NCBI GenBank assembly: GCA_964615625.1
Contig: CAZTQT010000003.1
Coordinates: forward strand, 4,379 to 68,378
Source: an uncultured Candidatus Saccharibacteria bacterium
Lineage (GTDB): Bacteria; Patescibacteriota; WWE3; UBA101185; UBA10185
Direction: 5' to 3'
Length of the DNA stretch: 64,000 nt
Below are positions 1-58,454 of this stretch, one piece after another. The notes beneath the pieces are model-generated. The model worked only from the letters and a program-made list of their open reading frames with translations, did not search any database and had not been told where the DNA came from. A program made the translations under genes and the position numbers. Positions within the stretch are counted from its first letter, which is position 1. Each line of letters begins with the position of its first letter.

Positions 1-1535
1 CCAATTAGTTTTTCTGATAAGTCTATACATGATGTTATAGCAGGAAGGGTTATAAAAACCTCGTGTCTCTTTTCAATATCTTCAGCTTTCTCTTCCAATA
101 TACTTATAGTATCTTCTCTTGAATTTTCCTCAATTTTCACTATATGAAAAAGTCTAGATATTGCTTCATTCGGTTCTATATATTTTCTATAATTTGATAT
201 GGAAATAGCTCCTATAAGTCGTATTCTCTGTCTTGATATATGGCTTTCTAAAACTGACAGTACTGTTGAGTTATAACCCCCTTCTTCGCCCATTCCCGTA
301 ATGAGATTTTGGATCTCATCAATGAAAAGTATTATATCTCCGGATCCTTCTGCTTCTTCTAAAGCCAAAGATACTTTATCTGAAACATTTCCCGAATCTT
401 TGTTCTCAGAAGTTAGGAGACCTACATTTATACTAACCATCCTTTTATTTCTTAGAGTTTTATGTTCAGTTCCTGTCATTATTTCGTAAGCTATGCCGTT
501 TATTATAGATGTTTTACCAACTCCAGATTCTCCTATCATTAAGATATCATTCTTCTCACTATCTAATATATCTGCAATTTGTTTTATTTCTAAATCCCTT
601 CCTATAACATTTTTAACTTGCCCTCTTTTCACTTGTTTTGTTATATCTACAGAAATTTTGTCTAAATTTGGTGTTACTCTACCCAACATTCCCTTTCCTA
701 TCCCTCCAGAAGGAGGTTTTCTGTACCCATCTTGCCATATATATTGTTTTTCCTTATTTTCTTTTTGATTTACTATCCAAAAAGCAGACTTCTCTATAAT
801 GTCAAAATTTGAGTTAAATATTAAAAGTAGTGTGTTTATATTTGGTATATTTTCTACTATTGCTATAAAAAGATGTTCTAACTCAACATATCTTGAAGAG
901 TTAGTTTTAGCTTTCTCAAAACTACTCCCTACTATGTCGTCAATTTTGGGATTTTGTGCGTTAAGTATTTTTTCCTCAAATTCTGGAATATCTAGCTCAC
1001 ACTTTTTAAGTAAATGTTTTATTTGCTCATCTTTAAAAAGTTCAAGAAGAATTAATCTTGTATCTTTGTTCGTGTTTTTTAATATATAGGCCGGTTTAGG
1101 TCTGAAAGACTTTATTTTTGATTGTTGTGTGGATATTTGTGAGATTTTTTTGGATGGTTTATCTAAGTTTATGTATACAAATACCAAGTATAGAAAAATA
1201 AAATAAAGTATTACATAAATAAGGGAGGATGATTTAAAAATAAAAAATGGAATGGCGATCCATATTATAGGAGATATTATTAGTGCTATTACGGCAAAGA
1301 ACATTAATATCATTCCTATAAAAATCATGAATATTCTAGTAAAAAAACTGACCATTCTACCTGTGAAGTTAGTTAAACCAAAAAGTGGGACAAAAAGAAG
1401 CCTTATGTTGTCAGTAAAGGAAATTGTATTGTCAAAACCAGATAAAAGTATTCCACCAACTTTAGTTATTTTCAACGGTGTTTTTACCAACCACCAATAT
1501 AAGAATTTGTGAGGAGGTTTTACGTAATAAGGCAT
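1..1535 (-). CDS. Membrane-anchored Clp/Hsp100-family AAA+ ATPase (partial; C-terminus outside window)
   Basis: Translated the minus strand by hand; the frame is open from the ATG at 1535 down to position 1 with no stop, and it is missing from the ORF track because it is open at the window edge. N-terminal ~140 aa are strongly hydrophobic (about 4 predicted TM helices, e.g. FGLTNFTGRMVSFFTRIFMIFIGMILMFFAVIALIISPIIWIAIPFFIF). Then a Clp_N-like repeat (VELEHLFIAIVEN). Then the AAA-1 region: NVIGRDLEIKQIADIL...NDILMIGESGVGKTSIINGIAYEI (Walker A) and DIILFIDEIQ (Walker B), typical of ClpA/B/C. Start codon is uncertain (1535, or an internal Met such as 1355). Confidence 0.6.
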   Translation of the reverse strand, partial: MPYYVKPPHKFLYWWLVKTPLKITKVGGILLSGFDNTISFTDNIRLLFVPLFGLTNFTGRMVSFFTRIFMIFIGMILMFFAVIALIISPIIWIAIPFFIFKSSSLIYVILYFIFLYLVFVYINLDKPSKKISQISTQQSKIKSFRPKPAYILKNTNKDTRLILLELFKDEQIKHLLKKCELDIPEFEEKILNAQNPKIDDIVGSSFEKAKTNSSRYVELEHLFIAIVENIPNINTLLLIFNSNFDIIEKSAFWIVNQKENKEKQYIWQDGYRKPPSGGIGKGMLGRVTPNLDKISVDITKQVKRGQVKNVIGRDLEIKQIADILDSEKNDILMIGESGVGKTSIINGIAYEIMTGTEHKTLRNKRMVSINVGLLTSENKDSGNVSDKVSLALEEAEGSGDIILFIDEIQNLITGMGEEGGYNSTVLSVLESHISRQRIRLIGAISISNYRKYIEPNEAISRLFHIVKIEENSREDTISILEEKAEDIEKRHEVFITLPAITSCIDLSEKLI

Positions 1536-1574
1536 TAAGAAAAGAATAACAGAAATAAAAGGAATAGGGTATAT

Positions 1575-2027
1575 TTAAAGATTTATTCCCTTAAAAATTA
1601 CTCCAGATATAAAGCCTAACAAAATTGAAATTATGAAAAAAAGTTTGTTTTTATTAAAAACTACAATTCCTAGGTATGGGATTGATGCTATCACTTTTCC
1701 TATAATCTCCTTTTCTGAAATTGGTTGGGGATCTTTTTCTTCGTTATTATCACCCTTAGTATAAAAAAAGTATTGACCGTGTGTAAAAGATATATCTGTT
1801 ATTCTGTGAGTTATTATCGGACCTTTGTTGTTCTGTTTATAAGAGATAATGTCACCTATTTTTAAAGTTTTAGGTTTTTTTACTATTACAAGTGAGTTTA
1901 ATTTTAAACTTGGGGACATAGATGATGAAGATATTTTATAGATTTTTATATTTAATTTGAGAATAATCAATAATATTATTAATGTAGGTATTATCAAAAA
2001 TAGGGAAGTGGATAGAACTTTTCTCAT
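1575..2027 (-). CDS. Type I signal peptidase, SipW/archaeal-ER type (S26B)
   Basis: 150 aa with an N-terminal TM segment, a catalytic Ser box (SSSMSPSL), a His box (ITHRI), a GDNN box and a C-terminal TM anchor. This architecture is typical of SipW/Sec11-type peptidases rather than LepB. Confidence 0.75.
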   Translation of the reverse strand: MRKVLSTSLFLIIPTLIILLIILKLNIKIYKISSSSMSPSLKLNSLVIVKKPKTLKIGDIISYKQNNKGPIITHRITDISFTHGQYFFYTKGDNNEEKDPQPISEKEIIGKVIASIPYLGIVVFNKNKLFFIISILLGFISGVIFKGINL

Positions 2028-2061
2028 ATTGTTTTTTTAAGTTTAAATTTTAATAACATGC

Positions 2062-2089
2062 TCCGCGGCGGGCTAAAGCCCGCCGCGGA
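2062..2089 (-). terminator. Perfect 11-bp GC stem-loop (ccgcggcgggc-taaa-gcccgccgcgg) between the TasA-like gene and the sipW-like gene
   Basis: It is the only GC-rich stretch in an AT-rich spacer. On the minus strand it is followed by a U/A-rich tract. It lies 3' of the 2108..2695 gene and 5' of the signal peptidase gene, so it could be an intra-operon attenuator or terminator. Confidence 0.4.
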
Positions 2090-2107
2090 AGCCTGAGTTT
2101 TAACAAA

Positions 2108-2695
2108 TTACATTTGTATAGCATTAAACTCAAAATCAAACGTTGCAGCAGCTCCCTGTTTTGTAGCACTTATATTAGGCGTAGAAAATCTCAATATTAG
2201 CTCCATAGTTTGTCCATGGTTAAGTTCTCCTAAACTAAATCCTTCAGTTTTCCACTTAATAAATGATTTCTGCCCCAAGCTGAGTCCTTCTTCACCTGGA
2301 TCCACTATTCCGTTTTGGTTTGTATCTGCCCATTTTATTATTTCAACCATTATGTCTGATCTTAGGTCTTTAGGATCATTCACGGTTTCGTAGTAAGCTT
2401 TAGAGGTTATACCTATTTTTGATGTTGCCATACTTATTAGTTTTATAAGATAGTCTTGTTGCCAACCAGGTCCTAGATTATCAAAACTTGGTCCTGGAAG
2501 CCCGTCTCTGTAGTTTGCTGGATCTGTTCCCATTGATAAAGATTCTAAAAACATTAAATTAGCACTACCTACACTAAAAGTAGATCCAGCAACCTTTGCT
2601 TGGTCGGTAAAAGCAGAGTAGGTTATACCTGCTAATAGAGATATTGTTACAATGGCTAAGCCTATTATATATGGTATTTTCTTTTTCATAATCAC
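2108..2695 (-). CDS. Secreted TasA/camelysin-like (peptidase M73 family) protein with a SipW-cognate-type signal peptide
   Basis: 195 aa. N-terminal signal/TM (KKKIPYIIGLAIVTISLLAG) is followed by SAFTDQAKVAGSTFSVGSANL, which matches the AYFSD.E......F.AGTLDL signature of TasA/CalY. The C-terminal strand ATFDFEFNAIQ resembles the TasA C-terminus. The gene is adjacent to the SipW-type peptidase. Confidence 0.6.
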   Translation of the reverse strand: MIMKKKIPYIIGLAIVTISLLAGITYSAFTDQAKVAGSTFSVGSANLMFLESLSMGTDPANYRDGLPGPSFDNLGPGWQQDYLIKLISMATSKIGITSKAYYETVNDPKDLRSDIMVEIIKWADTNQNGIVDPGEEGLSLGQKSFIKWKTEGFSLGELNHGQTMELILRFSTPNISATKQGAAATFDFEFNAIQM

Positions 2696-7621: not shown

Positions 7622-7840
7622 TTATCTTAGACGAAAAGTTATCCTACCTCTCGTTAGATCGTGGGGGGAGAACTCCACTTTTACTTTATCTCCCACTAAC
7701 ACCCTAATACGTTGTTTTCTCATTTTTCCAGATATTACAGCCAAAGCTGTAGAATCATCACCAAATTGAACCTTGAACATACCGCCCATCAGGGTCTCTG
7801 TTACTTTTCCTTCTTTTGTTATTACTTCCTTACTTATCAT
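7622..7840 (-). CDS. infA: Translation initiation factor IF-1
   Basis: 72-aa S1-like OB fold ([21 protein letters not shown]...[27 protein letters not shown]). Confidence 0.9.
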
Positions 7841-7861
7841 TCTTTTTAAAAGACGCGCTTG

Positions 7862-7890
7862 ATTGTATCAGAACAATTTTTCAAGGTCAA
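7862..7890 (-). promoter_or_regulatory. Candidate sigma70-type promoter for the infA-rpmJ-rpsM-rpsK-rpsD-rpoA-rplQ operon
   Basis: On the minus strand: TTGACC, 17 nt, TACAAT, ending about 20 nt upstream of the infA ATG. Confidence 0.45.
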
Positions 7891-8048
7891 TAACCCCAAT
7901 TTGATGACACTTCTTAGTCACCTCATGAGGTCAACATTGTTTTAAATGTCTTAAAATTTAATTAAGACATTCTGTAATCCTTACGCTAATGACTTATATT
8001 ACCACCCCTTATTGAAAAAGCAACGAAAAAAGGATTAAAATGTAAAAG

Positions 8049-9386
8049 ATGTTAGATATTAATTATATTAAAGATAATAGAGAAATAGTTAAAAAAGTTG
8101 CCGAGCAACGAAAAGTAAAGGGTTTAGATATAGATGGGTTGTTATCTGATTATGAAAAATATTTAAAGGTTTTACGGGAAGTAGAGGCTTTAAGGCAAAA
8201 AAGAAACGAACTGTCATCTTCTATTTCAAAGGCTTCTGAAGAAGAAAGATCTGGAATAATCTCCCAAGCATCTGATGTTAAAAACGAGCTATTGAAATTA
8301 GAGGATGAATTAGGTGTGTTGAAAGAAGCTGTGGACAAGGCTTTGTCTTATGTTCCAAATATTGTTTCTCAAGAGATGCCTGTCGGAGAAGATGAGCAGG
8401 GAAATTTAGTTATTAAAGTCTGGAATCCGAAAAATGGCTATTTACATATTGATAAACCTCTTCCATACGATGATATATCATACGCTCCTAAAGATAGTTT
8501 TAACCACAAAGATCATATTGAATTGGGGACAAAATTAGACATTATAGATATAGAACAAAGTGGGAAGGTTTCTGGTAGTAGGTTCTATTATCTAAAATCA
8601 GAAGCAGTTATTGTCCTAGAGGCAGTGTTCTCTTTGTTAAAAAGCGAGTTGATTAGGAGAGGTTACACTCCTTTAATGCCACCATTAATGGTAAAGGAAA
8701 GATCTCTTTTTGGTACAAGCCATTTTCCTGAAGGTAGGGATCAGGTCTATAAAATATCAAATGATAATGTTGAAGGTGGTAGTGATCTATTTTTAATAGG
8801 ATCAGCTGAGCCTACAAATTTTTCTTATTTCATGGATAAAGTTTTGGAAAAAGATAAATTGCCTACCAAAGTGTATGCGCAAACAACTTGTTTTAGAAGT
8901 GAGGTAGGGTCTTGGGGAAAAGATGTTAGAGGTATAAAAAGAGTTCATCAGTTTGATAAATTAGAGATGAATTGTGTCTGCACTGAAGAGCAAGAAAGAG
9001 AAGTGTTTGATGAGTTTTTGGAAATAAATGAGTGGTTATACCAGAAACTTGAGATACCTTACAGAGTTGTAAATAAGTGTACCGGAGATTGTGGTTATAA
9101 CGCTTCTTATTTTCAATATGATGTTGAAGGCTGGAGGCCGAGTGGAAAAGAATACATGGAGCTAGGTACAAACACTATGACAACTGACTACCAAGCTAGA
9201 AGATTAAACATAAAGTATAGGGATGGTAACGAGCTCAAATTTGCCAGAACTGTAAACGATACAGGGGCTAGTACCAGACCCTTAATAGTGTTGTTGGAAA
9301 ATCATCAGCAGGAAGATGGGTCTATAAATATTCCTGAAGCTTTACAGAAGTACACTGGGTTTAGTAAGATCCTGCCTAAGAACTAA
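8049..9386 (+). CDS. serS: Seryl-tRNA synthetase
   Basis: 445 aa. Has the N-terminal coiled-coil arm and a class II core (GYTPLMPPLMVKERSLFGTSHFPEGRDQVYKIS). Confidence 0.9.
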   Translation: MLDINYIKDNREIVKKVAEQRKVKGLDIDGLLSDYEKYLKVLREVEALRQKRNELSSSISKASEEERSGIISQASDVKNELLKLEDELGVLKEAVDKALSYVPNIVSQEMPVGEDEQGNLVIKVWNPKNGYLHIDKPLPYDDISYAPKDSFNHKDHIELGTKLDIIDIEQSGKVSGSRFYYLKSEAVIVLEAVFSLLKSELIRRGYTPLMPPLMVKERSLFGTSHFPEGRDQVYKISNDNVEGGSDLFLIGSAEPTNFSYFMDKVLEKDKLPTKVYAQTTCFRSEVGSWGKDVRGIKRVHQFDKLEMNCVCTEEQEREVFDEFLEINEWLYQKLEIPYRVVNKCTGDCGYNASYFQYDVEGWRPSGKEYMELGTNTMTTDYQARRLNIKYRDGNELKFARTVNDTGASTRPLIVLLENHQQEDGSINIPEALQKYTGFSKILPKN

Positions 9387-14002: not shown

Positions 14003-15682
14003 TTATTGTCGAGCCTTTTGTAATATCAACTGTTCTACTGTTGATACACCCTGTACACATTCAGGATTATCTGGGCTAAACTCTAAACATTTTTCAAAGT
14101 AACTCCTTGCTTTTTCATAATCACCCTGTCCTATGTATATAACACCTAATTTGTATGCAGAAGGATAAAGCCTTGGGTTCATATCTAATGATTTTTGAAG
14201 ATGAAAAATGGCTTGAGGGTAATCTTTTTTGACCATATAAATATGTCCTACATTATGAACCGCATCTGCATAGTCTGGTTTTAAAGCCACCGATCTCTTG
14301 AAGTTTTCTAAAGCTCCGTCTAAATCACCTTCGTTTGCTAAAACATCTCCCATATTGTTGTAAACTCTGTAACTGTAAGGAGCTGTTTTTCTAGTAGCTA
14401 TCCATAGATTTTTACTATTTCTTAAATCTACATTTCTAACCACAGTTCTTATTGAGTACAAAGCAAGTATTATCAAAAACGAATAAGTGACAAAATTATT
14501 CTTTTTTCCACTTTTACTGTTTTTACTTATCTGTCCCTCTACCCATATTAAAAATAGAGCTATTAAAGTAGATGAAAATATAGTCGGTATATATAAATAT
14601 CTTTCAGCAGCTAGCCAAGCAATTATGATAGGGCTAAAAGAAGGAAGTATTGAAAAAAGAATCATGAGTAAAAGTCCTGATACTCTTATATCTTTTTTGA
14701 GAAAATAAAGTATCCCAGATATTACCACTAGAGTTACAACAATCATTAAAGAGTATTCCACGGAGCTTATGTAAGCACCTTCGTGGTAGATACTTAAAAT
14801 TATTGGGTAAAAAAGAGTTCTGAATTCCATATACACTATGTAGGGTATTCGGTTTATTAGTGGTGTAGTTGCGTCTGTGTTTACATAGTACAAAGTGTTC
14901 AGATCCTCTATTCTTCCTTTATAGAAACCAGGCAAGAGAAGTGCTGCAAATACTAAAGATATTATCAGTACTGGTAAATAAAATGTAATATTTTTGAAAT
15001 TTATTTTTTTCTCAATTAAAAATTGGTCCATTAACACCAATAGAAAGGGTGTTATAAACATCCATCCTTGGATTTGGAAAAATATCATGCTCAAAAGATA
15101 AATGAAGCTGGATATTATTAGATATTTTTTATTCCCTGATTTTCTGTATAGAGCAAAAAATATGAGGATAGGAAGTATCAAGTTGGCTCTTAAGGCATAA
15201 ACTTGTCCAGCATGCCAACTTATGGATTCTGTATTTGCTGGATGTGCCAGAAAAAGAAATGTTCCTATAATGGAGATCCGTCTATCAAACAGTATTCTAA
15301 GAAGTAAAAATGCCAGTACCCCATTTACCATATGCATTATTATTGATTGGACATGGAAAGCGGAGGAGCTCTCTCCGAAGATACGGTACATAATAGACAT
15401 TATCATCATATGACCGTCTCTGGCTTTCATGGCTACACTGAAATCTTGAACGATTGGCAATTTTAAGGTAATTGATAGATCATCTAGATTGACAAATTTT
15501 CCCGTTATTATGTTTGCATATATAAGTAAAGTGAAAGCAAATATCAAACCAACAATAAATTTGTTTTCTTTTATGTATTTAATTAAGTCTTGAAAATTTC
15601 TTACTTCGGAGCTTTCGTTGTTGGTTTCGAGCGCTTGTGTTTTGGTCTTCTTCTTTTTCATCTTGATAATTTTACTATACAA
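14003..15682 (-). CDS. TMTC/PMT-like GT-C membrane protein with C-terminal TPR repeats
   Basis: 559 aa. About 10 predicted TM helices are followed by three or more TPR units (YNNMGDVLANEGDLDGALENFKRSVALKPDYADAVHNVGHIY...YEKARSYFEKCLEFSPDN). Confidence 0.6.
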   Translation of the reverse strand: MYSKIIKMKKKKTKTQALETNNESSEVRNFQDLIKYIKENKFIVGLIFAFTLLIYANIITGKFVNLDDLSITLKLPIVQDFSVAMKARDGHMMIMSIMYRIFGESSSAFHVQSIIMHMVNGVLAFLLLRILFDRRISIIGTFLFLAHPANTESISWHAGQVYALRANLILPILIFFALYRKSGNKKYLIISSFIYLLSMIFFQIQGWMFITPFLLVLMDQFLIEKKINFKNITFYLPVLIISLVFAALLLPGFYKGRIEDLNTLYYVNTDATTPLINRIPYIVYMEFRTLFYPIILSIYHEGAYISSVEYSLMIVVTLVVISGILYFLKKDIRVSGLLLMILFSILPSFSPIIIAWLAAERYLYIPTIFSSTLIALFLIWVEGQISKNSKSGKKNNFVTYSFLIILALYSIRTVVRNVDLRNSKNLWIATRKTAPYSYRVYNNMGDVLANEGDLDGALENFKRSVALKPDYADAVHNVGHIYMVKKDYPQAIFHLQKSLDMNPRLYPSAYKLGVIYIGQGDYEKARSYFEKCLEFSPDNPECVQGVSTVEQLILQKARQ

Positions 15683-15708: not shown

Positions 15709-16284
15709 GTGTTAGTAAGAAATTTTTCTCCTGTTGTTTTTATGAAGTTAAAAAGCTTTATATTAGAAATAATAGAAACTATTTTAGTGTCTGGGGTTGT
15801 AATACTCCTAGTTTATTACTTTATAGCTTCTATAGAGGTGGTTTCTGGTTCCAGTATGGAACCTTATTTTCATTCTGGAGAGAGGATACTTGTTGATAGG
15901 GTGGCTGGAAGATCACGATTAAAAAGAGGAGAGATTGTTGTTTTTTACCCACCGGATAATGATACTTTGCATTATGTGAAGAGGATAGTAGGTATTCCTG
16001 GAGATATATTTAAGATAATTGATTGTAAAATTGTTATATCTAGGGGAGGGGAGCAGTTTATCTTAAGCGAGGATTACCTGTCTCCGGAGATTTGTACTAA
16101 AGCTGGGGGATTCTTGAGAGAAGGTAGGTCTATCAGAGTTCCTGAGGATAAATATGTCTTGCTCGGTGATAACAGGGATCATTCACTTGACTCTAGGAAT
16201 CTAGGCCTTATAGATGTTGATAGGATAGTTGGAAGAGTTGTATTTAGACTTTGGCCTATAAATAAAATCAATTTTATTAACTAA
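15709..16284 (+). CDS. lepB: Signal peptidase I, bacterial LepB type (S26A)
   Basis: SGSSMEPYF (Ser box), VKRIVGIPGD (Lys box) and LLGDNRDHSLDSR. Confidence 0.85.
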   Translation: MLVRNFSPVVFMKLKSFILEIIETILVSGVVILLVYYFIASIEVVSGSSMEPYFHSGERILVDRVAGRSRLKRGEIVVFYPPDNDTLHYVKRIVGIPGDIFKIIDCKIVISRGGEQFILSEDYLSPEICTKAGGFLREGRSIRVPEDKYVLLGDNRDHSLDSRNLGLIDVDRIVGRVVFRLWPINKINFIN

Positions 16285-46871: not shown

Positions 46872-49016
46872 TTGGTTATTGAGATGTTATCTAAGTTCTT
46901 TAATTTAATAAAAAAGCATATATTTTTGGTAGTTTTAATAGCTTTTTCGGCTATTAATTTTTTTGTAGCTTATAAGCTTAATATTTTCAGATATAACAAC
47001 TTTGATTTTGGAAAATTTGATCTTGGAAACATGGTTCAGATGATTTGGTATACCCTGAATGGTAAATTCATGTATTTGACTGATTATTTTGGTTCAAATG
47101 TTCCAAGATGGTCTATGAGCCATGTAGATCCCCTGCTTGTGTTGTTTGCCCCAGCTTTTGCAATATACCCACATCCTTTAACAATAGTCATAGTAGAGGT
47201 TTTTCTCGTTATTTTTTCTTCTATTATTGTTTATAAAATTGCCCAAATGGAATTAAAATCAGATCTAGCCGCCTGCTTACTTGGATGTGCCTATCTTCTT
47301 TACCCATCCATGGGTTTTATAAACGGTACAATGGGGTTTCATGCTGTTACTGCAGCCATACCATTTTTCCTTGGAGCTTTTTATTTATTTGAAAAAATGT
47401 ACAAGGAAAATAAATTCACTACAAAAAAATTGATCATATTTTGGATACTTGTGGTTTTAACAATGGCTGGAAAAGAACAAATCCCACTATATATTTTCAT
47501 GTGGGGGATTTTTATTTTGTTCTTTAGAACACCTGAAGCTGGGGGTTTTAAATTAAATTTAGATTGGTTTAAGAACTTTTTTAAACTTAAAACTGCAAGA
47601 ATAGGTATAAGTATGGCTATCGTAGGATTACTGTGGTTTGTAACGGCCTTTTTTGTAATAATTCCAAAAAATTCTCACTATAGGGTTGATAGTTACAACA
47701 GATTTTTGGAGTCAATTGGAGTAAGTATAGATGCCTCAAGTGATGTAACCATGGAAAATTACTTTTTAAGTAGATACAGTGCTTTTGGTGAGTCTTACTC
47801 AGAGGTCATAAAAAATATGATTGTAAATAATAAGGAGATAATTAGAGTATTTTTTAGTGGAGATAGACTTGATAGTTTAGATAGAACTTTAAGACCTGTT
47901 GCTTACATGCCTTTTGTTAATCCTGCAATGTTTTTAATATCTGCTCCCGACTTTTTAATAAATTATTTGGTTACAGAAGGTGGTTTGGGAGTTGAAGATA
48001 TAGAAAATCATAGAATCTCCATGATAATACCGGTTCTTATTGTATCTACAATATACGGTATAAGTATGTTGGTAGGTATAGCAGAAAGCATTTTTGAAAA
48101 AATAAAGAAACATAGAAATTTGGTTATATCAATACTTTCAGCAATTGTTTTGTTTTTTAGCTTTGAAACTACAGTTAAATACAACAATCCTATGTATCTT
48201 TGGTTTACCCAAGCTGTAAAAAGAAGAGTTTCCGCCGATGAGAGGAAAGATATTGTTAAAAATATAAAAGTTGGGGATGTGGTTAAACTTCCAGACTTAG
48301 ATCTTAAAGACATAAAATGTGCCAACGCTATAATTGATAAGATACCTGAGAATGCTTCTATTTCAGGCCCGGACAATCTTGGTGACCACTTAAGTATGAG
48401 AGAAACTTATGCAATTTTTCCCGCTTTATGGAATGAGGCCGATTACGTAATAGTAGATGTTCAATCAAGAAAATTACTGTCTATACTTGGATTAAATAGA
48501 AACATAATAAGAGATTTAACTCAAAGTTTAATCTCCACAGAAAGATACAACCTTATTATGGCTTGTGGGAACTTATATCTTTTTGAAAAAGGGGAGCCAC
48601 AAGAAAAGGTTAAGCTCCTTCCTATTCAAGAACGTTACTCATATAAGGAAAAATATGATTTTAACATTCTTGATCTTTTGGGAGTTGTTGATTTTGAAAT
48701 GCCTGAGAATGTTGAAAGAGAGAAAGTTTATGATGGTAGTGTAGTTTATAAGAAACTAACCAACAATGGTATGGATGGGTATCTTATTTACATGACTTTT
48801 ATGAATAAAAAAGATGGGCAAATATTTCAAGTAGCACATTTACCATCTTTTGCTGTTTTAGAACCATCTGATTGGTCAAAAGATATGTATTATGTTGAAT
48901 CAATTGATATAGCTTTACCGTCGTATGTTGATCCTGGGGATTATAGTTTGTTTTTGAGCTTGTCTAATAAAATAAAAATGAGAAGTATGTATTTAGGTGA
49001 TGTTGTCGTAAAATAG
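46872..49016 (+). CDS. Large polytopic membrane protein with a big extracytoplasmic C-terminal domain (possibly DUF2079/GT-C-like)
   Basis: 714 aa. About 10 or more TM helices at the N-terminus, then a roughly 250-aa soluble C-terminus. Confidence 0.45.
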   Translation: MVIEMLSKFFNLIKKHIFLVVLIAFSAINFFVAYKLNIFRYNNFDFGKFDLGNMVQMIWYTLNGKFMYLTDYFGSNVPRWSMSHVDPLLVLFAPAFAIYPHPLTIVIVEVFLVIFSSIIVYKIAQMELKSDLAACLLGCAYLLYPSMGFINGTMGFHAVTAAIPFFLGAFYLFEKMYKENKFTTKKLIIFWILVVLTMAGKEQIPLYIFMWGIFILFFRTPEAGGFKLNLDWFKNFFKLKTARIGISMAIVGLLWFVTAFFVIIPKNSHYRVDSYNRFLESIGVSIDASSDVTMENYFLSRYSAFGESYSEVIKNMIVNNKEIIRVFFSGDRLDSLDRTLRPVAYMPFVNPAMFLISAPDFLINYLVTEGGLGVEDIENHRISMIIPVLIVSTIYGISMLVGIAESIFEKIKKHRNLVISILSAIVLFFSFETTVKYNNPMYLWFTQAVKRRVSADERKDIVKNIKVGDVVKLPDLDLKDIKCANAIIDKIPENASISGPDNLGDHLSMRETYAIFPALWNEADYVIVDVQSRKLLSILGLNRNIIRDLTQSLISTERYNLIMACGNLYLFEKGEPQEKVKLLPIQERYSYKEKYDFNILDLLGVVDFEMPENVEREKVYDGSVVYKKLTNNGMDGYLIYMTFMNKKDGQIFQVAHLPSFAVLEPSDWSKDMYYVESIDIALPSYVDPGDYSLFLSLSNKIKMRSMYLGDVVVK

Positions 49017-49024
49017 CTTTTAAT

Positions 49025-50515
49025 ATGAAAGATCTTGGAAAATGGCAATTTATTAGCATGATTTCTCAAGGAATCGCAATGGTTCTTGGGATGGTTGGTA
49101 CGTTTGTAATTATTAGGATTTTAACAGTTGGGGAATGGGGAGTCGTTCAGCTTGCAATGTCTATTGGGGGTACTCTTGGTATATATCAACATTTAGGTTT
49201 AGTCTCAGCAAGTACAAGAGAAATATCTTCTGCAAAAAATGATAAGGATATATTTAAAATATTTGTTACATCGGCAGTAGTAAGGTATTGCGTGACCTTG
49301 CCCATAGCTTTGGGCTTGTTTTTCTTATCAAAACATATAGCCATAAATCTTTATCACAATGAAGATCTTGTTACTCCTCTAAGATTGTATTCAACAGCGT
49401 TATTATTCCAGGGTATTCAAGGAATTTTAAATTCAGTTATATCTGGGACAAAGAGATTTAAGCATTTATTTTTGTATCAAATAATTATTTCGGTGGTAAA
49501 TATACTTATATTTATTCCATTTGTTTACATTTTTAAGATAAATGGTTATTTCTACGGATTTTTGGTTTTTAATATAATTTCATCAATTGCCTTATCAATA
49601 ATTGCTTTTAAACCATTAAAAGGTAAGTTGATAATGCCTAGTAAAAAAGATTTTGTAAGGCTTTTTAAAGAGATATTTTCAATAAGTATAGCTATTTATC
49701 TAGTTAAAATTTTGTACACAAACTGGCAGAAATTTGGAAACAATGTTCTTGGATTGTATAACTCTACTGAAGTTGTAGCTATATTTGCTTTTGCACTTCT
49801 ATATGCTGAAAAAATAATGATGGTATCTGACTCTGTTACAACAGTTAATATCCCTATGTTTTCAGAAAGGTACGTCAATGATTTTAAAGAATTTAAGACA
49901 TCATTTGAAAAGAACTTCAATAAACTTTTTTCATTTATTATTTTTACAGGCACATTTGCTGCTTATTTTGCACCTTTTTTAATTAACATACTAGTAGGTG
50001 GGAAAAAATATGACGAAGCCTTGGTTTTAGTCGCCCCCGTTATAACGGCTTTTGTAATATACTCTTTCATTAACATAATAACTTCTAGTGTAATGATCCC
50101 GGCGAAGTTGGCAAAAAGTATGATTGGAAGTTATATCTTTTTGTTAGTTGGAACAGTACTTTCATTTTTCATTCTAAGAGGTTTTATAAATCCTCTACCT
50201 TCTGTTTCTTGGTCAATGGTTATAGGTAGCATTTTAGGTTTATTCTTTGTCCTTTACTGGGTTAGAAAACGATTAGGTTTTTCATTTTTTAATATAGATC
50301 ATGTTGTAATAATAGTTCAGGGTTTTGCTATATCTATGTTGTGTGGTGTAACCATACCTTTTTTAACTAAATTATTTTTAGCAATACCGTTGTTTGGTCT
50401 TTTAATTTGGGGATTTTTTGAATCTAAGTTTATAGATAAGAACGATATTAAAAATACATTTGGAAAGTTTTCTGCAATTTTTAAAAAGGAAAGTGTTGCT
50501 AAAAGTGGAAAATAA
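49025..50515 (+). CDS. Wzx-like oligosaccharide flippase (MOP superfamily)
   Basis: 496 aa with about 12-14 TM helices; N-terminal ISQGIAMVLGMVGTFVIIRILTVGEWGVVQLAMS is typical of Polysacc_synt. Confidence 0.65.
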   Translation: MKDLGKWQFISMISQGIAMVLGMVGTFVIIRILTVGEWGVVQLAMSIGGTLGIYQHLGLVSASTREISSAKNDKDIFKIFVTSAVVRYCVTLPIALGLFFLSKHIAINLYHNEDLVTPLRLYSTALLFQGIQGILNSVISGTKRFKHLFLYQIIISVVNILIFIPFVYIFKINGYFYGFLVFNIISSIALSIIAFKPLKGKLIMPSKKDFVRLFKEIFSISIAIYLVKILYTNWQKFGNNVLGLYNSTEVVAIFAFALLYAEKIMMVSDSVTTVNIPMFSERYVNDFKEFKTSFEKNFNKLFSFIIFTGTFAAYFAPFLINILVGGKKYDEALVLVAPVITAFVIYSFINIITSSVMIPAKLAKSMIGSYIFLLVGTVLSFFILRGFINPLPSVSWSMVIGSILGLFFVLYWVRKRLGFSFFNIDHVVIIVQGFAISMLCGVTIPFLTKLFLAIPLFGLLIWGFFESKFIDKNDIKNTFGKFSAIFKKESVAKSGK

Positions 50516-51416
50516 AGAAGAAAAAAAATCTATAAAAATATTAAAAACTGTTATCAAGATATTAATAAGTTCAGTTCTTATATTTTATTTATTCTCACGT
50601 AAAATAGACAAAGGTGAGTTGGTTGAGAATTTTAAGCTCTTAGACTGGAGATATGTCCCTCTTGTTTTTGCCACTATCATAATACATTACGCTATCAGTT
50701 CTTTTAGATGGAAATCACTTTTAATTCATGAAAAATCTAATGAAGTATCACGATGGTATCTTCTCAAGCTTTATTTCATGGGAGCATTTTTTAATAACTT
50801 TATGCCTACCAGTATAGGTGGTGATGTTTTTAAAATGTATAAATTGGGTAAGAAAATTAAAGACCCTGCCACAGGATTCACGTCTGTTTTTACAGAAAGA
50901 TTTACTGGTATTGTAATGTTATTTTTAATAGGACTTTTAAGTATTGGTAAAAATTTAGGTTGGGGAGTGATTATACTTTTAATTTGGTTTATTGTAGCAA
51001 TGTATATTGGTATGTTTGTTCTAAAAGTATTGGGCGGGAAGATAAAATTCTTCGGAGACATTTACAATTCTTTAATGGTATATAAGAATCATTTAAAAGT
51101 TCTTTGGTTTGCAATGTTTACGTCTTTTTTAATTCAACTTTTAGCTATATCTACCCAATATCTTTTGTTTGTAGCAGTAGGTATAAAACTACCATTATTT
51201 TATAGTTTAATGGCTTTTCCAATAATTACACTTGTAGGGTTTTTTGTTCCATCAATAAACGGTTTGGGAGTTCAAGACACTTTATATGCCAGTATGTTTT
51301 CTTTGGTCGGAGTATCTACGAGCACTGCTATATCAGTTTCAGTCATGTACCACATGGTAAGAATGGGTGTAAGTTTAATCGGAGGTGTAATGTATGCCCT
51401 CGATAGGGATTCTTAA
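50460..51416 (+). CDS. LPG-synthase-TM-like (UPF0104, flippase-like) membrane protein
   Basis: LLDWRYVPLVFATIIIHYAISSFRWKSLL...FFNNFMPTSIGGDVFKMYKL. The true start is probably the in-frame GTG at 50505 or TTG at 50496, overlapping the flippase stop. Confidence 0.55.
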   Translation: MESFLQFLKRKVLLKVENKEEKKSIKILKTVIKILISSVLIFYLFSRKIDKGELVENFKLLDWRYVPLVFATIIIHYAISSFRWKSLLIHEKSNEVSRWYLLKLYFMGAFFNNFMPTSIGGDVFKMYKLGKKIKDPATGFTSVFTERFTGIVMLFLIGLLSIGKNLGWGVIILLIWFIVAMYIGMFVLKVLGGKIKFFGDIYNSLMVYKNHLKVLWFAMFTSFLIQLLAISTQYLLFVAVGIKLPLFYSLMAFPIITLVGFFVPSINGLGVQDTLYASMFSLVGVSTSTAISVSVMYHMVRMGVSLIGGVMYALDRDS

Positions 51417-52980
51417 AGAACTAAAAGATAAAAAAGTTTTCCGTTTTGCCCTTTTGTTTTTATTCTTGGTTTTGTTTGCTATTACACGTTTACCTAGACT
51501 AAAAGATGATGTTGTAAATCCAGATGGAACAAACTGGCATTATAGATCAGAGCAATTTATATCTGGAATAAAGCACGGACAGTTTGAAAAAACATACCAG
51601 CATTATCATCCAGGAACAACTTTAATGTGGATTTCTGGAGTTGGGGTAGAAGTATATAAACAAGTTACAGGAATTACATCTTATAATTCTGAAAATTTTT
51701 TAACGTTTGATTTAGTTGCAAAAATTTCGGTTATTTTTGTTCAATTTATATTGTCTGTTTTTCTAATATTTCTGTTTTCAAAGTTAGTAGGGTTTTATAA
51801 ATCTTTTTTAACTGTTTCAATTTTTACTTTTGAGCCTTGGTTTTTGGCTAATTCAAGACTTTACCACTTGGATGTTCTTCTTACACTGCTAATTTTTATT
51901 AGCATTATTTTTGCTTATATAAATATGAAAGAGCCTTCAGTCAAGAACTCTTTACTGACTGGTCTTTTTATATCTTTATCATTTTTAACAAAAAGTGTTG
52001 CTCTAGGACTGTTAATATTTGTAATTTTTTGCACCTCATTTTGTTTGTTTAGAGCAGGTAAAAAAGAGAAGATATTTTCTTCTGTTGGTTATATTTTTCT
52101 ATCATTCACATTTTTCACATTTTTACTTTTACCGGCTTTGTGGGTAAATCCTAAGTATTGTCTATCTAATATGATAAGTGAGACTGGGAAGGCTGGAATA
52201 GAAAGAGGACATGACCAGATAATATTTGAAAAAGAAACTAATGACGGTGGAGCCCTTTTTTATCCTTTAGTAACGTTGTTAAAAGTTAGTCCATTTATGA
52301 TAATTGGTTCCTTGCTTGGATTTTATTATTTTATAAATAGAAAAATAAAAGATAAGAAATTTAGTAATTTTGGGATTTACCTCTTATTCTTTTTAATTGG
52401 GTATTTAGTTGGGATGACTATTCCCTCTAAAAAAATAGACAGATATATTTTGGTGCTTTTTCCATTTTTGGCTTACTCCTGTGTGGTTGGATATAAATTT
52501 TTATTTGAAAATTTAAAGAGCGAGAGCCAGAAAAATATTTTTAAGATTATTGTTCCGTCAATGTTAGCAGTGTTTTGGGTTATACCTTACTTTACACTGT
52601 TCCCATGGTATTTTGTTTACACAAATCCTTTATTTGGATCCCCATGTAATGCTAATAAAATAATAGGTCAAAAACCATTTGGTGTTGGAATTCCTGACTT
52701 AGAAAAATTGATTAAAGCTCGTTATGGTGATCCTAAACTTGGGTTTTATGATACCCAGCCTATAAAAGCTATTTATCCAAATTCTAAGGTATTTGATGTT
52801 AGAACTTATGGGCCAAGTAGTTATAACCTTTTGATTCTTGGTATAAATGAAGGTATACCCAAAAAAGTTTTGGATAATGAGAAGTATTCTTTTAGGAAGG
52901 ATTATTCTTTGTGGATAAATGGGTTAGAATATTGGAGAGTCTATGTTAGAGAGGATAAGGTAGTTGAATATGAAAAATGA
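51394..52980 (+). CDS. GT-C-like integral membrane glycosyltransferase, paralog A
   Basis: 528 aa, polytopic. Motifs WHYRSEQF...YHPGTTLMWISG, FEPWFLANSRLYHLD and KKIDRYIL are shared with the 54603 gene. Confidence 0.55.
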   Translation: MPSIGILKELKDKKVFRFALLFLFLVLFAITRLPRLKDDVVNPDGTNWHYRSEQFISGIKHGQFEKTYQHYHPGTTLMWISGVGVEVYKQVTGITSYNSENFLTFDLVAKISVIFVQFILSVFLIFLFSKLVGFYKSFLTVSIFTFEPWFLANSRLYHLDVLLTLLIFISIIFAYINMKEPSVKNSLLTGLFISLSFLTKSVALGLLIFVIFCTSFCLFRAGKKEKIFSSVGYIFLSFTFFTFLLLPALWVNPKYCLSNMISETGKAGIERGHDQIIFEKETNDGGALFYPLVTLLKVSPFMIIGSLLGFYYFINRKIKDKKFSNFGIYLLFFLIGYLVGMTIPSKKIDRYILVLFPFLAYSCVVGYKFLFENLKSESQKNIFKIIVPSMLAVFWVIPYFTLFPWYFVYTNPLFGSPCNANKIIGQKPFGVGIPDLEKLIKARYGDPKLGFYDTQPIKAIYPNSKVFDVRTYGPSSYNLLILGINEGIPKKVLDNEKYSFRKDYSLWINGLEYWRVYVREDKVVEYEK

Positions 52981-54601
52981 AAATAAAATGAAAAATGAAA
53001 AGAAAATTAAATTTAATTTGCTTCTATTTTTAATCATAGTTTTAGCTTTAATTTTAAGGTTGGTTGGGATACAGCACGGGTTTCCTTTCATTTACCATCC
53101 CGACGAGCCTACAATAATACGATCAGCTTTAGGTGTTAGGTTTAATCTAAACCCTGGGCATTTTGATTGGCCTCATTTGTATATTTATTTAAATTTTATT
53201 TTATATAAAGTTTTTGCTGCAGTTAGGGATCTTGCCGTAAGCGCGGGGTTGAAAGAAACTATTTCCTCATCCTTACCTTTAGTTTGGAATGACAATTTAA
53301 TTTTTTACTACCTAACAAGGTGTCTTTCTGCTATCTTTGGAGCTTTAACAGTTATTCCGTTATATTTAACAGGAAAAGAGTTATTTGGAAAAAAAGCTGG
53401 TATACTTTCCGCCTTAACTATGGCCATTTTACCTTACCATGTTTGGCACTCCCATTATTCCTTAGGGGATGTTCCAATGGTTTTTATGCTTGCTTGGGGT
53501 TTGTATTTTTCATCAAAGATAATAAAAAGCTCGGATACTAAAAATTACTTGTTAGCAGGTTTATTTGTAGGTTTATCTGCCTCTATGAAGTACAACGGAG
53601 GTTTATCTGCCTTAATGGTTCCTGTTGCTCATTTTATTAGGGTTCTTATATCCAAAAAAGACTCTGAGGTCTTTGTAAAATCAGAAATTTTAGATAAAAA
53701 GGGGTTTTTAAGCTTAGTGTTTTCTGGTGCGTTTGCTTTATTTGGTTTCTTAATTGGAACTCCCTATGCTTTGTTTGATTTCAAAACTTTTTCAAGAACA
53801 GATGGTCCTCAGGGAGCTTTTTGGCAGTTTACAAATGTTGGTTCTGTAAGGTTTATGGAACATGTTGGGAAGTTTTTTACAGAAAGTTTTGGAAGAATAC
53901 TTACCAACACTGGATATGTCGTTATGCCTGTGTACTTTATAGTTCTTGGTTATTTAATTTATAAAATAGTAAAAAAGAAAACAGAAGAAAGAGATTTTTA
54001 CTTACTATTTTTATACATTGTTTCACTATTTTTAATTTGGTATGAGTCTGGATTTAAAAATAATAGGTCTCATTATTACTTTATTTTCTACCCGTTTTTA
54101 GCCTTGATTTTCGGATTTTTTGTAAACTGCTTAAGGTATAAGTTTAGTTTAGGTTGGCCAAAAGAAAATTTTTCTAAATTATTTTCAAAAATTGTGGTTC
54201 CCATACTTTTTGCACCATTGTTAATCTCATCAATCTCAAGTTCCCGTGCTTTTGTGCAAAAAGATACCAGAAACATGCTTTATGATTGGCTTAAGAAAAA
54301 CTACGTTAGTAGAGATATTATTTTTTACACAGACAGAGACTTAAAACAAATATTTGATTTTGTTAATGCAAGATCCGTTAAAGGCTTAAGTAGGTATGAC
54401 AAATCAGGAGATTCTATAATTATACTTTCTAGTCAGTCTACAGTTGAATTTAAAGGTGTTGATAGTGAGTTTGTAAAAAAGGAGATAAGATTCGATAGTA
54501 AAGGCAAGAGAGGTCCTGATATTGAAGTTTATTTTTATGACGGTCCTGATGATGTTGTGAAAAAAGAAAATAGTGGTGGAGGTTGTGGTTGTGGGAGATA
54601 A
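52964..54601 (+). CDS. GT39/ArnT/PMT-like GT-C membrane glycosyltransferase
   Basis: 545 aa. HGFPFIYHPDEPTII loop motif and about 11 TM helices. Gly/Cys-rich C-terminus (SGGGCGCGR). Confidence 0.55.
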   Translation: MNMKNENKMKNEKKIKFNLLLFLIIVLALILRLVGIQHGFPFIYHPDEPTIIRSALGVRFNLNPGHFDWPHLYIYLNFILYKVFAAVRDLAVSAGLKETISSSLPLVWNDNLIFYYLTRCLSAIFGALTVIPLYLTGKELFGKKAGILSALTMAILPYHVWHSHYSLGDVPMVFMLAWGLYFSSKIIKSSDTKNYLLAGLFVGLSASMKYNGGLSALMVPVAHFIRVLISKKDSEVFVKSEILDKKGFLSLVFSGAFALFGFLIGTPYALFDFKTFSRTDGPQGAFWQFTNVGSVRFMEHVGKFFTESFGRILTNTGYVVMPVYFIVLGYLIYKIVKKKTEERDFYLLFLYIVSLFLIWYESGFKNNRSHYYFIFYPFLALIFGFFVNCLRYKFSLGWPKENFSKLFSKIVVPILFAPLLISSISSSRAFVQKDTRNMLYDWLKKNYVSRDIIFYTDRDLKQIFDFVNARSVKGLSRYDKSGDSIIILSSQSTVEFKGVDSEFVKKEIRFDSKGKRGPDIEVYFYDGPDDVVKKENSGGGCGCGR

Positions 54602-54602
54602 C

Positions 54603-57648: not shown

Positions 57649-57659
57649 AATTTCATCTG

Positions 57660-58364
57660 ATGAATAAATTAAGAAGTTTAGCAAATAATTGGATGTGTGG
57701 TGTTGAGGAGACAAACCGAAGGAATATATTGAGTATGCTTGATAAAAATCCAGATGCTAAAGTGTTGGATTTAGGATGTGATGATGGTTCTTGGAGTATA
57801 GAGTTAGGAAAAGAAATTGGTTCTAATAATATTTATGGGGTTGAGGTTGTTGAGAGTAGGGCAAAAGATGCAATGGATAAAGGTGTTGTGATAAAGGGTT
57901 TTGATTTAAATGGGGAATTTGATTTTGAGGATAATTTTTTTGATGTAGTTCATTCTAATCAAGTAATTGAGCACTTACACGATACCGATAATTTTATTTC
58001 CGAAATATACAGAATTTTAAAACCTGGAGGATACATAATAGTATCTACCGTTAATTTAGCAAGTTGGCATAATGTTTTTTCATTAATATTGGGTTTTCAG
58101 CCTTTTGATGTTACTAATATAAGTATTAAGGGGAGCGTTGGGAACCCAGTTTCTATTTGGCGTGGTGTTGATAGTGGGTTTAATAAGCATAAGTCTTGGC
58201 AACATGTCAGAATGTTTACGCTACGTGCTCTGAAAGAATTTTTAGAATTATATGAATTTAAAGATATTAAATCCAAATCTGCTGGTTATTACCCATTACC
58301 AAATTTTTTTGCCAATATAGATAAAAATCACGGCCACTATATCGTTGTCAAAGCTTACAAATAA
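57660..58364 (+). CDS. Class I SAM-dependent methyltransferase
   Basis: VLDLGCDDGSW (motif I), VVHSNQVIEHL, ILKPGGYIIVST. Confidence 0.7.
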   Translation: MNKLRSLANNWMCGVEETNRRNILSMLDKNPDAKVLDLGCDDGSWSIELGKEIGSNNIYGVEVVESRAKDAMDKGVVIKGFDLNGEFDFEDNFFDVVHSNQVIEHLHDTDNFISEIYRILKPGGYIIVSTVNLASWHNVFSLILGFQPFDVTNISIKGSVGNPVSIWRGVDSGFNKHKSWQHVRMFTLRALKEFLELYEFKDIKSKSAGYYPLPNFFANIDKNHGHYIVVKAYK

Positions 58365-58454
58365 TAAGAGTCTCATCAATGTCAATTTTTCTCTAATGTT
58401 TAAGGTGTGTTGGTTATAATTAGTAAAATATCCATAATATAGTAAAATGACAGT

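Follow-up and report, generated by a model that had tools for sequence, protein, structure and literature searches.

Gene content of the locus

The window is the whole 64-kb stretch of WWE3 DNA that was analysed. Three minus-strand ORFs lie there in succession (2108-2695, 1575-2027, and a third that is open from 1535 to the window edge), with gaps of 80 nt between the subunit and peptidase genes and 39 nt between the peptidase and ATPase genes. An earlier, sequence-only reading had described three co-directional minus-strand genes, the last two 39 nt apart, and the ORF positions and the gap were re-found as stated. Of the third ORF, 511 codons fall within the window. The annotated features were as follows.

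2108..2689, minus strand: TasA-superfamily secreted subunit, 193 aa, ATG start
2615..2689, minus strand: signal peptide of the subunit, residues 1-25 (TIGR04088 near-match and predicted helix; putative cleavage)
2061..2090, minus strand: GC-rich hairpin, 18 nt past the subunit stop codon
1575..2027, minus strand: ER/archaeal (SipW)-type signal peptidase I, 150 aa (TIGR02228)
1167..1535, minus strand: N-terminal membrane module of the ATPase, residues 1-123 (hydropathy, AlphaFold2, hhalign)
753..1118, minus strand: Clp_N-like helical domain of the ATPase, residues about 140-261 (Pfam Clp_N, 20.7 bits, exactly at the cut-off)
1..668, minus strand: first AAA ring (D1) of the ATPase, cut by the window edge (Pfam AAA and AAA_lid_9)
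15709..16284, plus strand: general LepB-type signal peptidase I, 191 aa (Pfam Peptidase_S26, TIGR02227)

Secreted subunit and downstream hairpin

The subunit gene had been placed at 2695 to 2108. A gene is present, but its true start is most likely the ATG at 2689, which has a perfect Shine-Dalgarno sequence (AAGGAGGTGA) 7 nt ahead of it. In an exact-protein look-up, the 193-aa ATG product was on record in 23 public contigs, whereas the 195-aa form from the alternative GTG start at 2695 gave no match.

The SipW-cognate signature claimed for this protein was recovered in part: the signal motif (SAFTDQAKVAGSTFSVGSANL) is there, but the scores for TIGR04088 (cognate_SipW; 18.4-18.5 bits, cut-off 19) and Peptidase_M73 (PF12389; 16.5 bits, cut-off 22.5, covering residues 3-47 only) were just under the cut-offs. 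At E<0.01, the two models were matched by 12/33 and 7/33 subunit-family members, respectively, and close homologues are named SipW-cognate signal peptide proteins by NCBI and JGI. The sequence cut-offs for TasA/camelysin were not reached (NCBIfam TasA NF046066, 11.8 bits vs 450), and TasA was absent among the PDB sequences matched by the subunit-family profile, the sole match being the Ca-loop motif of SdrD. The subunit itself carries a Ca-binding-like loop, W-x-D-x-N-x-N-G-x-x-D-x-G-E, at residues about 120-133. In the structure model, a helix spans residues 5-26 and pLDDT is low at 21-27; signal cleavage is tentatively placed between TYS and AFTD, by analogy with the cleavage site of TasA.

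The structure check suggested in the earlier reading gave the anticipated result, as the predicted subunit has the jelly-roll fold of the TasA/AbpA/CanA fibre subunits. The single-chain model is a closed monomer. Modelling suggests that the subunit may form fibres; that it is instead a monomeric secreted or wall-associated Ca-binding protein, adhesin or camelysin-like enzyme, which shares the jelly-roll fold and makes no fibre, is a lesser but appreciable possibility. No subunit paralogue was found in the 64-kb window, and no other ORF there has an N-terminal A-x-F-[ST]-D in a secreted context, in line with the earlier remark that TapA is lacking. The subunit was single-copy at the locus in 62/62 related loci, at 41-76% identity to the window protein. 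TasA homologues in Patescibacteria have been reported before (PMC9245690).

The hairpin behind the subunit gene has a 13-bp stem with 11 G-C pairs (about -32 kcal/mol). Hairpins of <= -12 kcal/mol were found at the same place in 47 of the 62 loci, with differing stem sequences, compared with 2/54, 2/51, and 1/51 after the control genes S9, L13, and RF. The element resembles a terminator, an attenuator or a structure that stabilises the 3' end of the mRNA. Since the U-tract of the window hairpin is weak, transcription may continue into the peptidase and ATPase genes. A perfect Shine-Dalgarno sequence together with a conserved post-gene hairpin is a pattern typical of abundant structural subunits.

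Signal peptidases

The assignment of the second gene to the SipW/Sec11-type peptidases was upheld: its product passes TIGR02228 (92.5 bits, cut-off 51.85) and keeps the motifs SSSMSPS, ITHRI, and KGDNN of the Ser/His (not Ser/Lys) type. The patterns S-M-x-P, (I/V)THR(I/V), and KGD(N/S)N hold across 23 orthologues. Hydrophobic segments are present at both the N- and C-terminus, and the score for the Bacillus SipW equivalog (NF046067) was 64 bits, below its cut-off of 190. Because a gene for a general LepB-type enzyme (Peptidase_S26, 119.5 bits; TIGR02227, 141.3 bits vs cut-off 47) also lies in the window, the SipW-type enzyme represents a second, specialised peptidase.

Hsp100-like ATPase

The full ATPase, completed from identical contigs (L001:11155-13728), has 857 aa and two AAA rings, which settles the choice between one and two AAA domains that had been left to contig extension. 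It is one Clp/Hsp100 polypeptide with a hydrophobic N-terminus, as expected from the initial description of a Clp-family AAA+ ATPase at the membrane. A frameshift origin of the fusion was rejected, since the architecture is the same in 41 full-length orthologues, which come from independent assemblies.

With the class-1 Hsp100 proteins ClpB, ClpC, and ClpA, the ATPase shares a Clp_N-like domain (a helical repeat in the structure model), two AAA rings, AAA_lid_9, and ClpB_D2-small. D1 has the Walker A GESGVGKT and the Walker B ILFIDE, and the Walker motifs of the two rings are preserved across WWE3. The best PDB and NCBIfam matches were ClpC, ClpB, and ClpA (E down to 1e-155), and similarity to the ClpC and ClpB structures was high (E about 1e-120). 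The matches, the intact Walker motifs and the location of the gene among housekeeping genes speak for a standard ClpB/ClpC that serves as a housekeeping disaggregase or protease partner and has an odd N-terminus, but the scores stayed below half of every curated equivalog cut-off: 518.9 bits vs 1232.1 for ClpB (TIGR03346), 449 vs 993 for ClpA/ClpC (TIGR02639), and 433 vs 885 for ClpV/TssH (TIGR03345). The 20-kb context showed no type VI genes.

The losses are also at odds with an ordinary ClpB or ClpC. Pore loop 1 reads KDSG in place of KYRG and the GYVG pore-2 stretch is missing (41/41 WWE3 orthologues), so that the pore-loop Tyr is absent from both rings. The M-domain for DnaK coupling is lacking (comparison with the canonical ClpB paralogue in L079), as is the ClpP-docking (I/L/V)-G-(F/L) loop of D2, the ClpC region FAGFGG aligning to gaps; these losses, too, extend over the 41 orthologues. 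Having lost the aromatic pore loops of both rings as well as the M-domain and the ClpP-docking loop, the protein is unlikely to be a processive unfoldase. The family is an uncharacterised Hsp100 variant; a literature search on membrane-anchored Hsp100 in Patescibacteria found nothing specific.

Membrane module and Parcubacteria counterparts

The N-terminus had been described as a four-helix membrane anchor. About four helices are predicted (AlphaFold2, pLDDT 87; residues 8-38, 40-45, 57-102, and 105-123), but hydropathy favours just a two-span hairpin, and the module probably consists of amphipathic helices plus that hairpin at residues about 76-123. FtsH and Msp1 are hexameric AAA+ motors that likewise use N-terminal transmembrane helices as a membrane tether; they keep aromatic pore loops, thread their substrates and are not of the Hsp100 class, and FtsH has a protease domain. 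A word-indexed search with the ATPase N-terminus gave 3 matches, and an exhaustive HMMER search was used instead; the fused N-terminus occurs in only about 80 clusters at 50% identity. Large repeat proteins (1.5-2 thousand aa) of cell-surface type, with CBM_X2, LRR_5, and fn3, matched residues 10-66 and were judged spurious.

The module (roughly 100 aa) has a homologue in Parcubacteria, where it is a separate membrane protein of 120 aa (hhalign probability 98.7%, E 1.5e-16, residues 5-103). The gene for the latter is directly upstream of an atypical Hsp100 of 870-924 aa in 6/6 Parcubacteria loci, and Glycos_transf_4 is next downstream in 5/5 loci with downstream data. Within 6 kb of the pair, no TasA-like or SipW-type gene was found in any of the six loci. 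As in WWE3, the M-domain and the pore-1 Tyr are lacking from the Parcubacteria ATPases; a deleted or shortened pore-2 was seen in 4/6, the Tyr being kept in two, and only the D2 nucleotide site is retained. Two of the Parcubacteria gene sets (L079 and L082) carry a canonical ClpB, with KFRG/GYVG and the M-domain, in addition to the atypical form. This coexistence, too, speaks against an ordinary ClpB/ClpC, a reading that we consider improbable. From the WWE3 side, bit scores overlap (359-397 for Parcubacteria atypical ATPases, 368 for canonical ClpB), and common ancestry of the atypical subfamily is drawn from reciprocal scores, shared losses and the shared membrane module taken together.

The window ATPase fits a previously unnamed group that is defined here as atypical membrane-associated Hsp100 of Patescibacteria: a WW...LFxPxFG..GR module fused or immediately upstream, Clp_N, two AAA rings, and no M-domain or pore-1 aromatic. 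This architecture and the motif losses are common to 41 WWE3 and 6 Parcubacteria proteins.

Conservation of gene order

The gene string L13-S9-HTH-RadC-subunit-(peptidase)-(ATPase)-RF-FtsK was kept in 62 related WWE3 loci, with frequent start-stop overlaps (RadC/subunit and ATPase/RF). Sixty loci were informative for presence or absence. The peptidase and ATPase genes were both beside the subunit gene in 19 loci, the ATPase without an adjacent peptidase in 31, the peptidase without an adjacent ATPase in 3, and neither in 7; the tally refers to the locus only, and where the ATPase (10 loci) or the peptidase (38 loci) is not next to the subunit gene, it may be encoded elsewhere. Hidden fibre genes or peptidases in subunit-ATPase gaps or insertions were rejected, as the contents were unrelated or mobile genes (L041, L042, L045, L048, L054, L056, L062, and L064). 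The synteny check on the trio thus had a mixed outcome: the order is conserved, but only inside a far longer lineage-wide string of unrelated core genes.

These counts bear on the proposal that the three genes form one apparatus, in which a membrane-tethered Clp-like ATPase unfolds, chaperones or energises export and assembly of the SipW-processed subunit. Co-directional genes with short gaps (80 and 39 nt), an ATPase located at the membrane, and its position downstream of the subunit gene in 50/60 WWE3 loci (83%), even without the peptidase, argue for it. However, RadC, S9, and the release factor adjoin just as strongly, and the ATPase is missing beside well-conserved subunit genes in 10 loci; in one of these (L016) the subunit is 73% identical to the window protein, compared with 76% in L018, where the ATPase is kept. 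The conserved hairpin stands between the subunit gene and the downstream genes, the pore-loop aromatics that Hsp100 unfoldases use for threading are missing, and the AAA rings are cytoplasmic, whereas TasA-type fibre assembly in known systems is extracellular and chaperone- and ATP-independent (PMC9674648, PMC9245690). The occurrence of all four peptidase/ATPase combinations and of the Parcubacteria pair with no fibre gene within 6 kb also counts against it. The earlier suggestion of an ATPase-containing assembly or secretion apparatus is not supported, and we hold such an apparatus to be quite unlikely.

Comparison with known systems

The fibre/peptidase pair belongs to a known kind of pair. 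In Bacillus subtilis tapA-sipW-tasA (TasA, 8AUR), the secreted subunit is also a jelly-roll protein, its signal is of the SipW-cognate type (A-F-x-D ... T-F-x-x-G) that the window protein resembles at a near-cut-off score, and an ER-type Ser/His peptidase is likewise encoded next to it, with a general LepB-type enzyme elsewhere; both subunits probably assemble by donor-strand exchange. The window locus differs in having no TapA-like partner and in its order, subunit then peptidase, within a ribosomal/housekeeping string instead of a biofilm operon. The subunit is shorter (193 aa vs 261 aa for TasA), has an SdrD-like Ca loop and scores under the TasA and Peptidase_M73 cut-offs. To the archaeal TasA-superfamily filaments (AbpA bundling pili, 7UEG; cannulae CanA/CanX, 9H8B; AbpX) there is no detectable sequence similarity; these rely on a generic signal peptidase (PMC9245690), whereas a dedicated one is adjacent here.

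Pam pili, reported from Saccharimonadia and Microgenomatia, are also donor-strand fibres on Patescibacteria, fibre formation being only predicted here; each of their pilins comprises two domains and depends on PapD-like chaperones that are anchored in the membrane (bioRxiv 10.64898/2026.03.03.709456). The Pam neighbourhood also keeps unrelated housekeeping genes, and an ATPase or trans-envelope machine is thought unnecessary for both fibres. There is no TasA-like subunit and no SipW in the Pam system, and a Pam-type pilin was rejected as the identity of the window subunit because of the two-domain pilins and the different operon.

Unlike ClpB, ClpC, and ClpA, the ATPase has an N-terminal membrane module. 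A parallel, by analogy only, may be Torsin with LAP1/LULL1, in which a Clp/Hsp100-related AAA+ protein likewise lacks aromatic pore loops and has an N-terminal hydrophobic membrane attachment and a membrane-spanning partner (PMC5425593). The counterpart to LAP1/LULL1 would be the small membrane protein that Parcubacteria encode as a gene of its own and WWE3 as a fusion. Torsins are eukaryotic and luminal, with one ring and a cofactor whose degenerate AAA+ fold supplies an Arg finger (PMC5425593), whereas the window-type ATPase is a two-ring protein on the cytoplasmic side, and its partner is small, helical and membrane-bound.

Probable two-unit organisation

The locus probably holds two functionally separate units, a TasA-type subunit with its SipW-type peptidase and a membrane-fused atypical Hsp100, which are neighbours because gene order around L13-S9 is frozen in the WWE3/Katanobacteria lineage. 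The 50/60 adjacency is attributed to this frozen synteny, which does not by itself disprove a lineage-specific functional link. In WWE3 only, the membrane-fused, pore-loop-less Hsp100 might have been recruited to the TasA-like fibre, e.g., for holding or releasing the signal-anchored precursor at the membrane or for controlling when the fibre is made; we give this little credence.

The folds and domains, gene order, split/fused relationship and motif losses are observed, and fibre formation, the cleavage site, the membrane topology and any activity of the ATPase are predicted. Under the preferred two-unit explanation, in the first unit, a highly expressed TasA-superfamily subunit would be exported via Sec, and its signal peptide would be removed by the adjacent ER-type peptidase or, in relatives without it, by a peptidase from another locus. 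Once mature, the Ca-binding jelly-roll protein would most likely polymerise extracellularly through donor-strand exchange and with no energy source, like TasA, AbpA, and cannulae, and yield a surface fibre or matrix on a small symbiont-type cell. In the second unit, the atypical two-ring Hsp100 would be held at the cytoplasmic membrane face by the fused module; more likely than threading in a ClpB-like way, it would remodel or regulate a membrane-associated partner in a Torsin-like one.

Implications

As it is single-copy, well conserved and at a fixed core-genome position, the subunit is a good candidate for the main surface filament. It occurs across a whole class of uncultivated, probably host-dependent bacteria and offers a target for cryo-EM on host attachment. 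For Patescibacteria in general, tight co-directional adjacency conserved within one lineage should be taken with caution, as weak evidence for shared function. If recruitment of the ATPase to the fibre were true, the locus would represent the first case of an AAA+ ATPase linked to a TasA-type system.

Of the two units, the ATPase is the less usual one: an offshoot of Hsp100, spread across Patescibacteria, has kept nucleotide sites and lost the hallmarks of threading unfoldases. In every case in the WWE3 and Parcubacteria sets, a small membrane protein goes with it, either as a partner or as a fused part, in a bacterial parallel to Torsin. The ATPase provides a tractable system for the role of a pore-loop-less Clp-type ring at the membrane.

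Gene layout and source of the sequence

The sequence-only reading had placed three consecutive minus-strand open reading frames (ORFs) at 1-2695, and ORF analysis located them there as follows.

2108-2695 from GTG (195 aa) or 2108-2689 from ATG (193 aa), minus strand: gene 1, TasA-like subunit
1575-2027 (150 aa), minus strand: gene 2, SipW-type signal peptidase
Starting at 1535 and continuing beyond the window edge, minus strand: gene 3, membrane-anchored Clp/Hsp100-like ATPase

The ATG at 2689 lies 7 nt downstream of a perfect AAGGAGGTGA (Shine-Dalgarno, SD). The 193-aa product is on record in 23 public contigs, and the 195-aa form (GTG start) had no exact protein record in public contigs. 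Contigs identical to the window sequence (G+C ~32%) include a 272-kb one in NCBI assembly GCA_046128295.1. Among labelled genomes, the nearest belong to candidate division WWE3 (Katanobacteria) or are MAGs labelled "Patescibacteria group"; one of them is the complete genome CP006914.1. From left to right across ~7840-8049, the genes change from minus to plus strand and the GC skew from negative to positive; the site may be a divergent promoter region or be close to a replication origin.

The subunit and the adjacent signal peptidase

The gene 1 protein matched Peptidase_M73 (16.5 bits, cut-off 22.5) and TIGR04088 cognate_SipW (18.4 bits, cut-off 19) weakly and at the N-terminus only. Among 33 relatives, 7 matched Peptidase_M73 and 12 TIGR04088, and no other family was matched by more than two. 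The gene 1 family has >150 members, all ~195 aa long and all from Patescibacteria/WWE3; conservation is strong, with a mean column identity of 59%. The confident AlphaFold2 model (33 sequences, pLDDT 86.6) places an all-beta domain after a signal helix. Its fold matches include CanX of the cannulae, a DUF1102 tube protein, AbpA (archaeal bundling pili), and the Sulfolobus thread, each a donor-strand fibre subunit; Foldseek agreed (FimA, TasA, AbpA). Fold, motif, and context support the proposed assignment to the TasA superfamily and the SipW-type pairing, with sequence-level membership scores below threshold.

An invariant loop, W-x-D-x-N-x-N-G-x-x-D-x-G-E (residues ~120-133; window 2108-2689, minus strand), is similar to the motif for Ca binding in staphylococcal SdrD B domains/repeats (weak matches). 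The loop suggests calcium-dependent folding or assembly, in line with reports that the cannulae and AbpX relatives depend on calcium. Elsewhere in the window, a cluster of genes for envelope functions and glycosylation (46872-63427, plus strand) encodes a DUF2079 membrane protein, a Polysacc_synt flippase-like protein, two PMT_2/STT3-like glycosyltransferases, and a Glycos_transf_1 domain fused to an FkbM methyltransferase; these might glycosylate surface proteins, e.g., the gene 1 subunit.

The gene 2 protein scored above the archaeal/ER-type model TIGR02228 (92.5 bits, cut-off 51.85) and did not pass the Bacillus SipW equivalog model. Its Ser/His-type motifs SSSMSPS, ITHRI, and KGDNN are kept in 23 orthologues. 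A canonical LepB-type signal peptidase I is encoded at 15709-16284 (plus strand; TIGR02227, 141 bits, cut-off 47), divergently from the gene of a 559-aa TPR protein (14003-15682, minus strand). The genome therefore carries two signal peptidase types within 14 kb of each other, which makes the gene 2 enzyme an additional peptidase with a specialised role, like SipW in Bacillus.

Hairpin downstream of the subunit gene

At 18 nt past the gene 1 stop, in surroundings of 30% G+C, a hairpin (2090..2061, minus strand) has a 13-bp stem with 11 GC pairs and ~-32 kcal/mol. Related loci were scanned over 90 nt past each gene stop for hairpins of -12 kcal/mol or stronger.

Table. Loci with a hairpin downstream of the gene named
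TasA-like subunit: 47/62
S9: 2/54
L13: 2/51
Release factor: 1/51
Peptidase: 4/22
ATPase: 11/44

The post-subunit hairpins (median -17.5 kcal/mol) have stems unrelated in sequence between loci, and U-runs then follow in many. They are probably terminators, attenuators, or 3' stabilisers of an abundant transcript. Together with the perfect SD, the hairpin fits very high expression of gene 1 as a structural gene, its transcript for the most part ending, or being stabilised, ahead of the genes that follow.

Conservation of gene order

One genome per species was scanned, yielding 62 subunit-encoding loci, which were analysed by ORF calling and phmmer. A conserved string runs throughout: L13, S9, an HTH gene on the other strand, RadC, the subunit, (peptidase), (ATPase), and release factor, with FtsK further on. 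The peptidase HMM matched in just 24 loci, every time at the same position.

Table. Gene content of the 60 informative loci
Peptidase present, ATPase present: 19
Peptidase absent, ATPase present: 31
Peptidase present, ATPase absent: 3
Peptidase absent, ATPase absent: 7

The RadC gene often overlaps the start of the subunit gene by 4 nt, and overlaps of ATPase and release factor are also frequent; with the string, this links the subunit as tightly to RadC as to the ATPase. The subunit of a locus missing the ATPase (L016) is as well conserved (73% identity to the window protein) as that of a locus keeping it (L018, 76%). The adjacency of the trio reflects a gene order that has stayed frozen within one lineage, and alone it is no proof of shared function. 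The same kind of housekeeping co-conservation is described for a CPR pilus operon (Pam-pilus preprint, bioRxiv 10.64898/2026.03.03.709456). Insertions interrupt the otherwise frozen string at L056:1430-8030, where a DNA methyltransferase-like gene lies between RadC and the subunit together with further genes that look mobile, and at L054:8580-13123, where unrelated genes stand in the place of the ATPase.

The complete ATPase and its relatives

Identical contigs complete gene 3 to 857 aa (L001:11155-13728), its stop overlapping the start of the release-factor gene. Walker A and B are intact in both AAA rings of the protein, which also carries AAA_lid_9 and ClpB_D2-small. Relative to S. aureus ClpC, it has KDSG in place of KYRG at pore loop 1, lacks four residues of pore loop 2 (YVGH) and the ClpP-docking loop, and has no M-domain; 41/41 full-length orthologues show the same changes. 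Scores against the curated ClpB, ClpA, and ClpV models were less than half of the cut-offs. Residues 1-123 are hydrophobic or amphipathic and are modelled (AlphaFold2, pLDDT 87) as helices 8-38, 40-45, 57-102, and 105-123 before a Clp_N-like helical domain; hydropathy and charge distribution predict a hairpin that spans the membrane twice and has its two ends in the cytoplasm. Gene 3 encodes an uncharacterised Hsp100 variant. Farther on in the same contig, outside the window, a short 354-aa AAA_2/Lon_lid ATPase gene (L001:18863-19927) with no obvious protease domain adjoins UDG and RNase J.

An exhaustive HMMER search with gene 3 residues 1-290 gave just ~80 clusters, mostly ~850-aa proteins, and stand-alone ~120-aa proteins aligned to residues 10-100. 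The latter form a membrane protein family of >100 members in Parcubacteria/Patescibacteria, matched by no Pfam or NCBIfam model. In profile-profile comparison, residues 5-103 of the WWE3 ATPase matched the small protein at its residues 18-116 (probability 98.7%, E 1.5e-16); the relationship is a split/fused ("Rosetta stone") one.

In 6/6 Parcubacteria contexts examined (L078-L083), the small gene lies directly upstream (overlapping to 65 nt gap) of an 870-924 aa Clp_N and two-ring ATPase. A Glycos_transf_4 (MraY-like) gene, sometimes fused to DUF192 or QueH, comes next in 5/5 contexts with downstream sequence. No TasA-like or SipW-type ORF was found within 6 kb in any of the six. These ATPases share several derived features. 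As in WWE3, they are without M-domain and pore-1 aromatic; 4/6 have lost or shortened pore loop 2, and two retain Tyr. They have their own N-terminal hydrophobic segments, some of the proteins beginning in a DnaJ-like zinc ribbon (CxxC...CxxC), and a degenerate D1 Walker B (DN, NN, or EG). Right beside the atypical ATPase, L079 and L082 divergently encode a canonical ClpB (KFRG, GYVG, long M-domain). The atypical ATPase of L079 scored 398-449 bits against WWE3 proteins vs 366-370 bits against its canonical paralogue; the reverse comparison, from the WWE3 side, did not discriminate between the atypical ATPases and canonical ClpB. The gene 3 ATPase belongs to a different, wider module.

Role of the ATPase

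The suggestion that the ATPase serves in fibre assembly is not supported, since the genes are present or absent independently of each other, a separate ATPase module exists in Parcubacteria, the threading pore loops are lost, and the ATPase is predicted to be cytoplasmic, whereas TasA-type fibres in known systems assemble outside the cell without an energy source (PMC9674648, PMC9245690). An ATPase-fibre link in WWE3 is considered very unlikely. By analogy rather than membership, the ATPase comes closest to the Torsins in its set of features, being Clp-related and membrane-associated, lacking aromatic pore loops, and having a membrane partner (PMC5425593). TasA homologues have already been noted in Patescibacteria (Wang et al. 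2022, PMC9245690), and genes 1 and 2 are a further example of the kind reported for this group.
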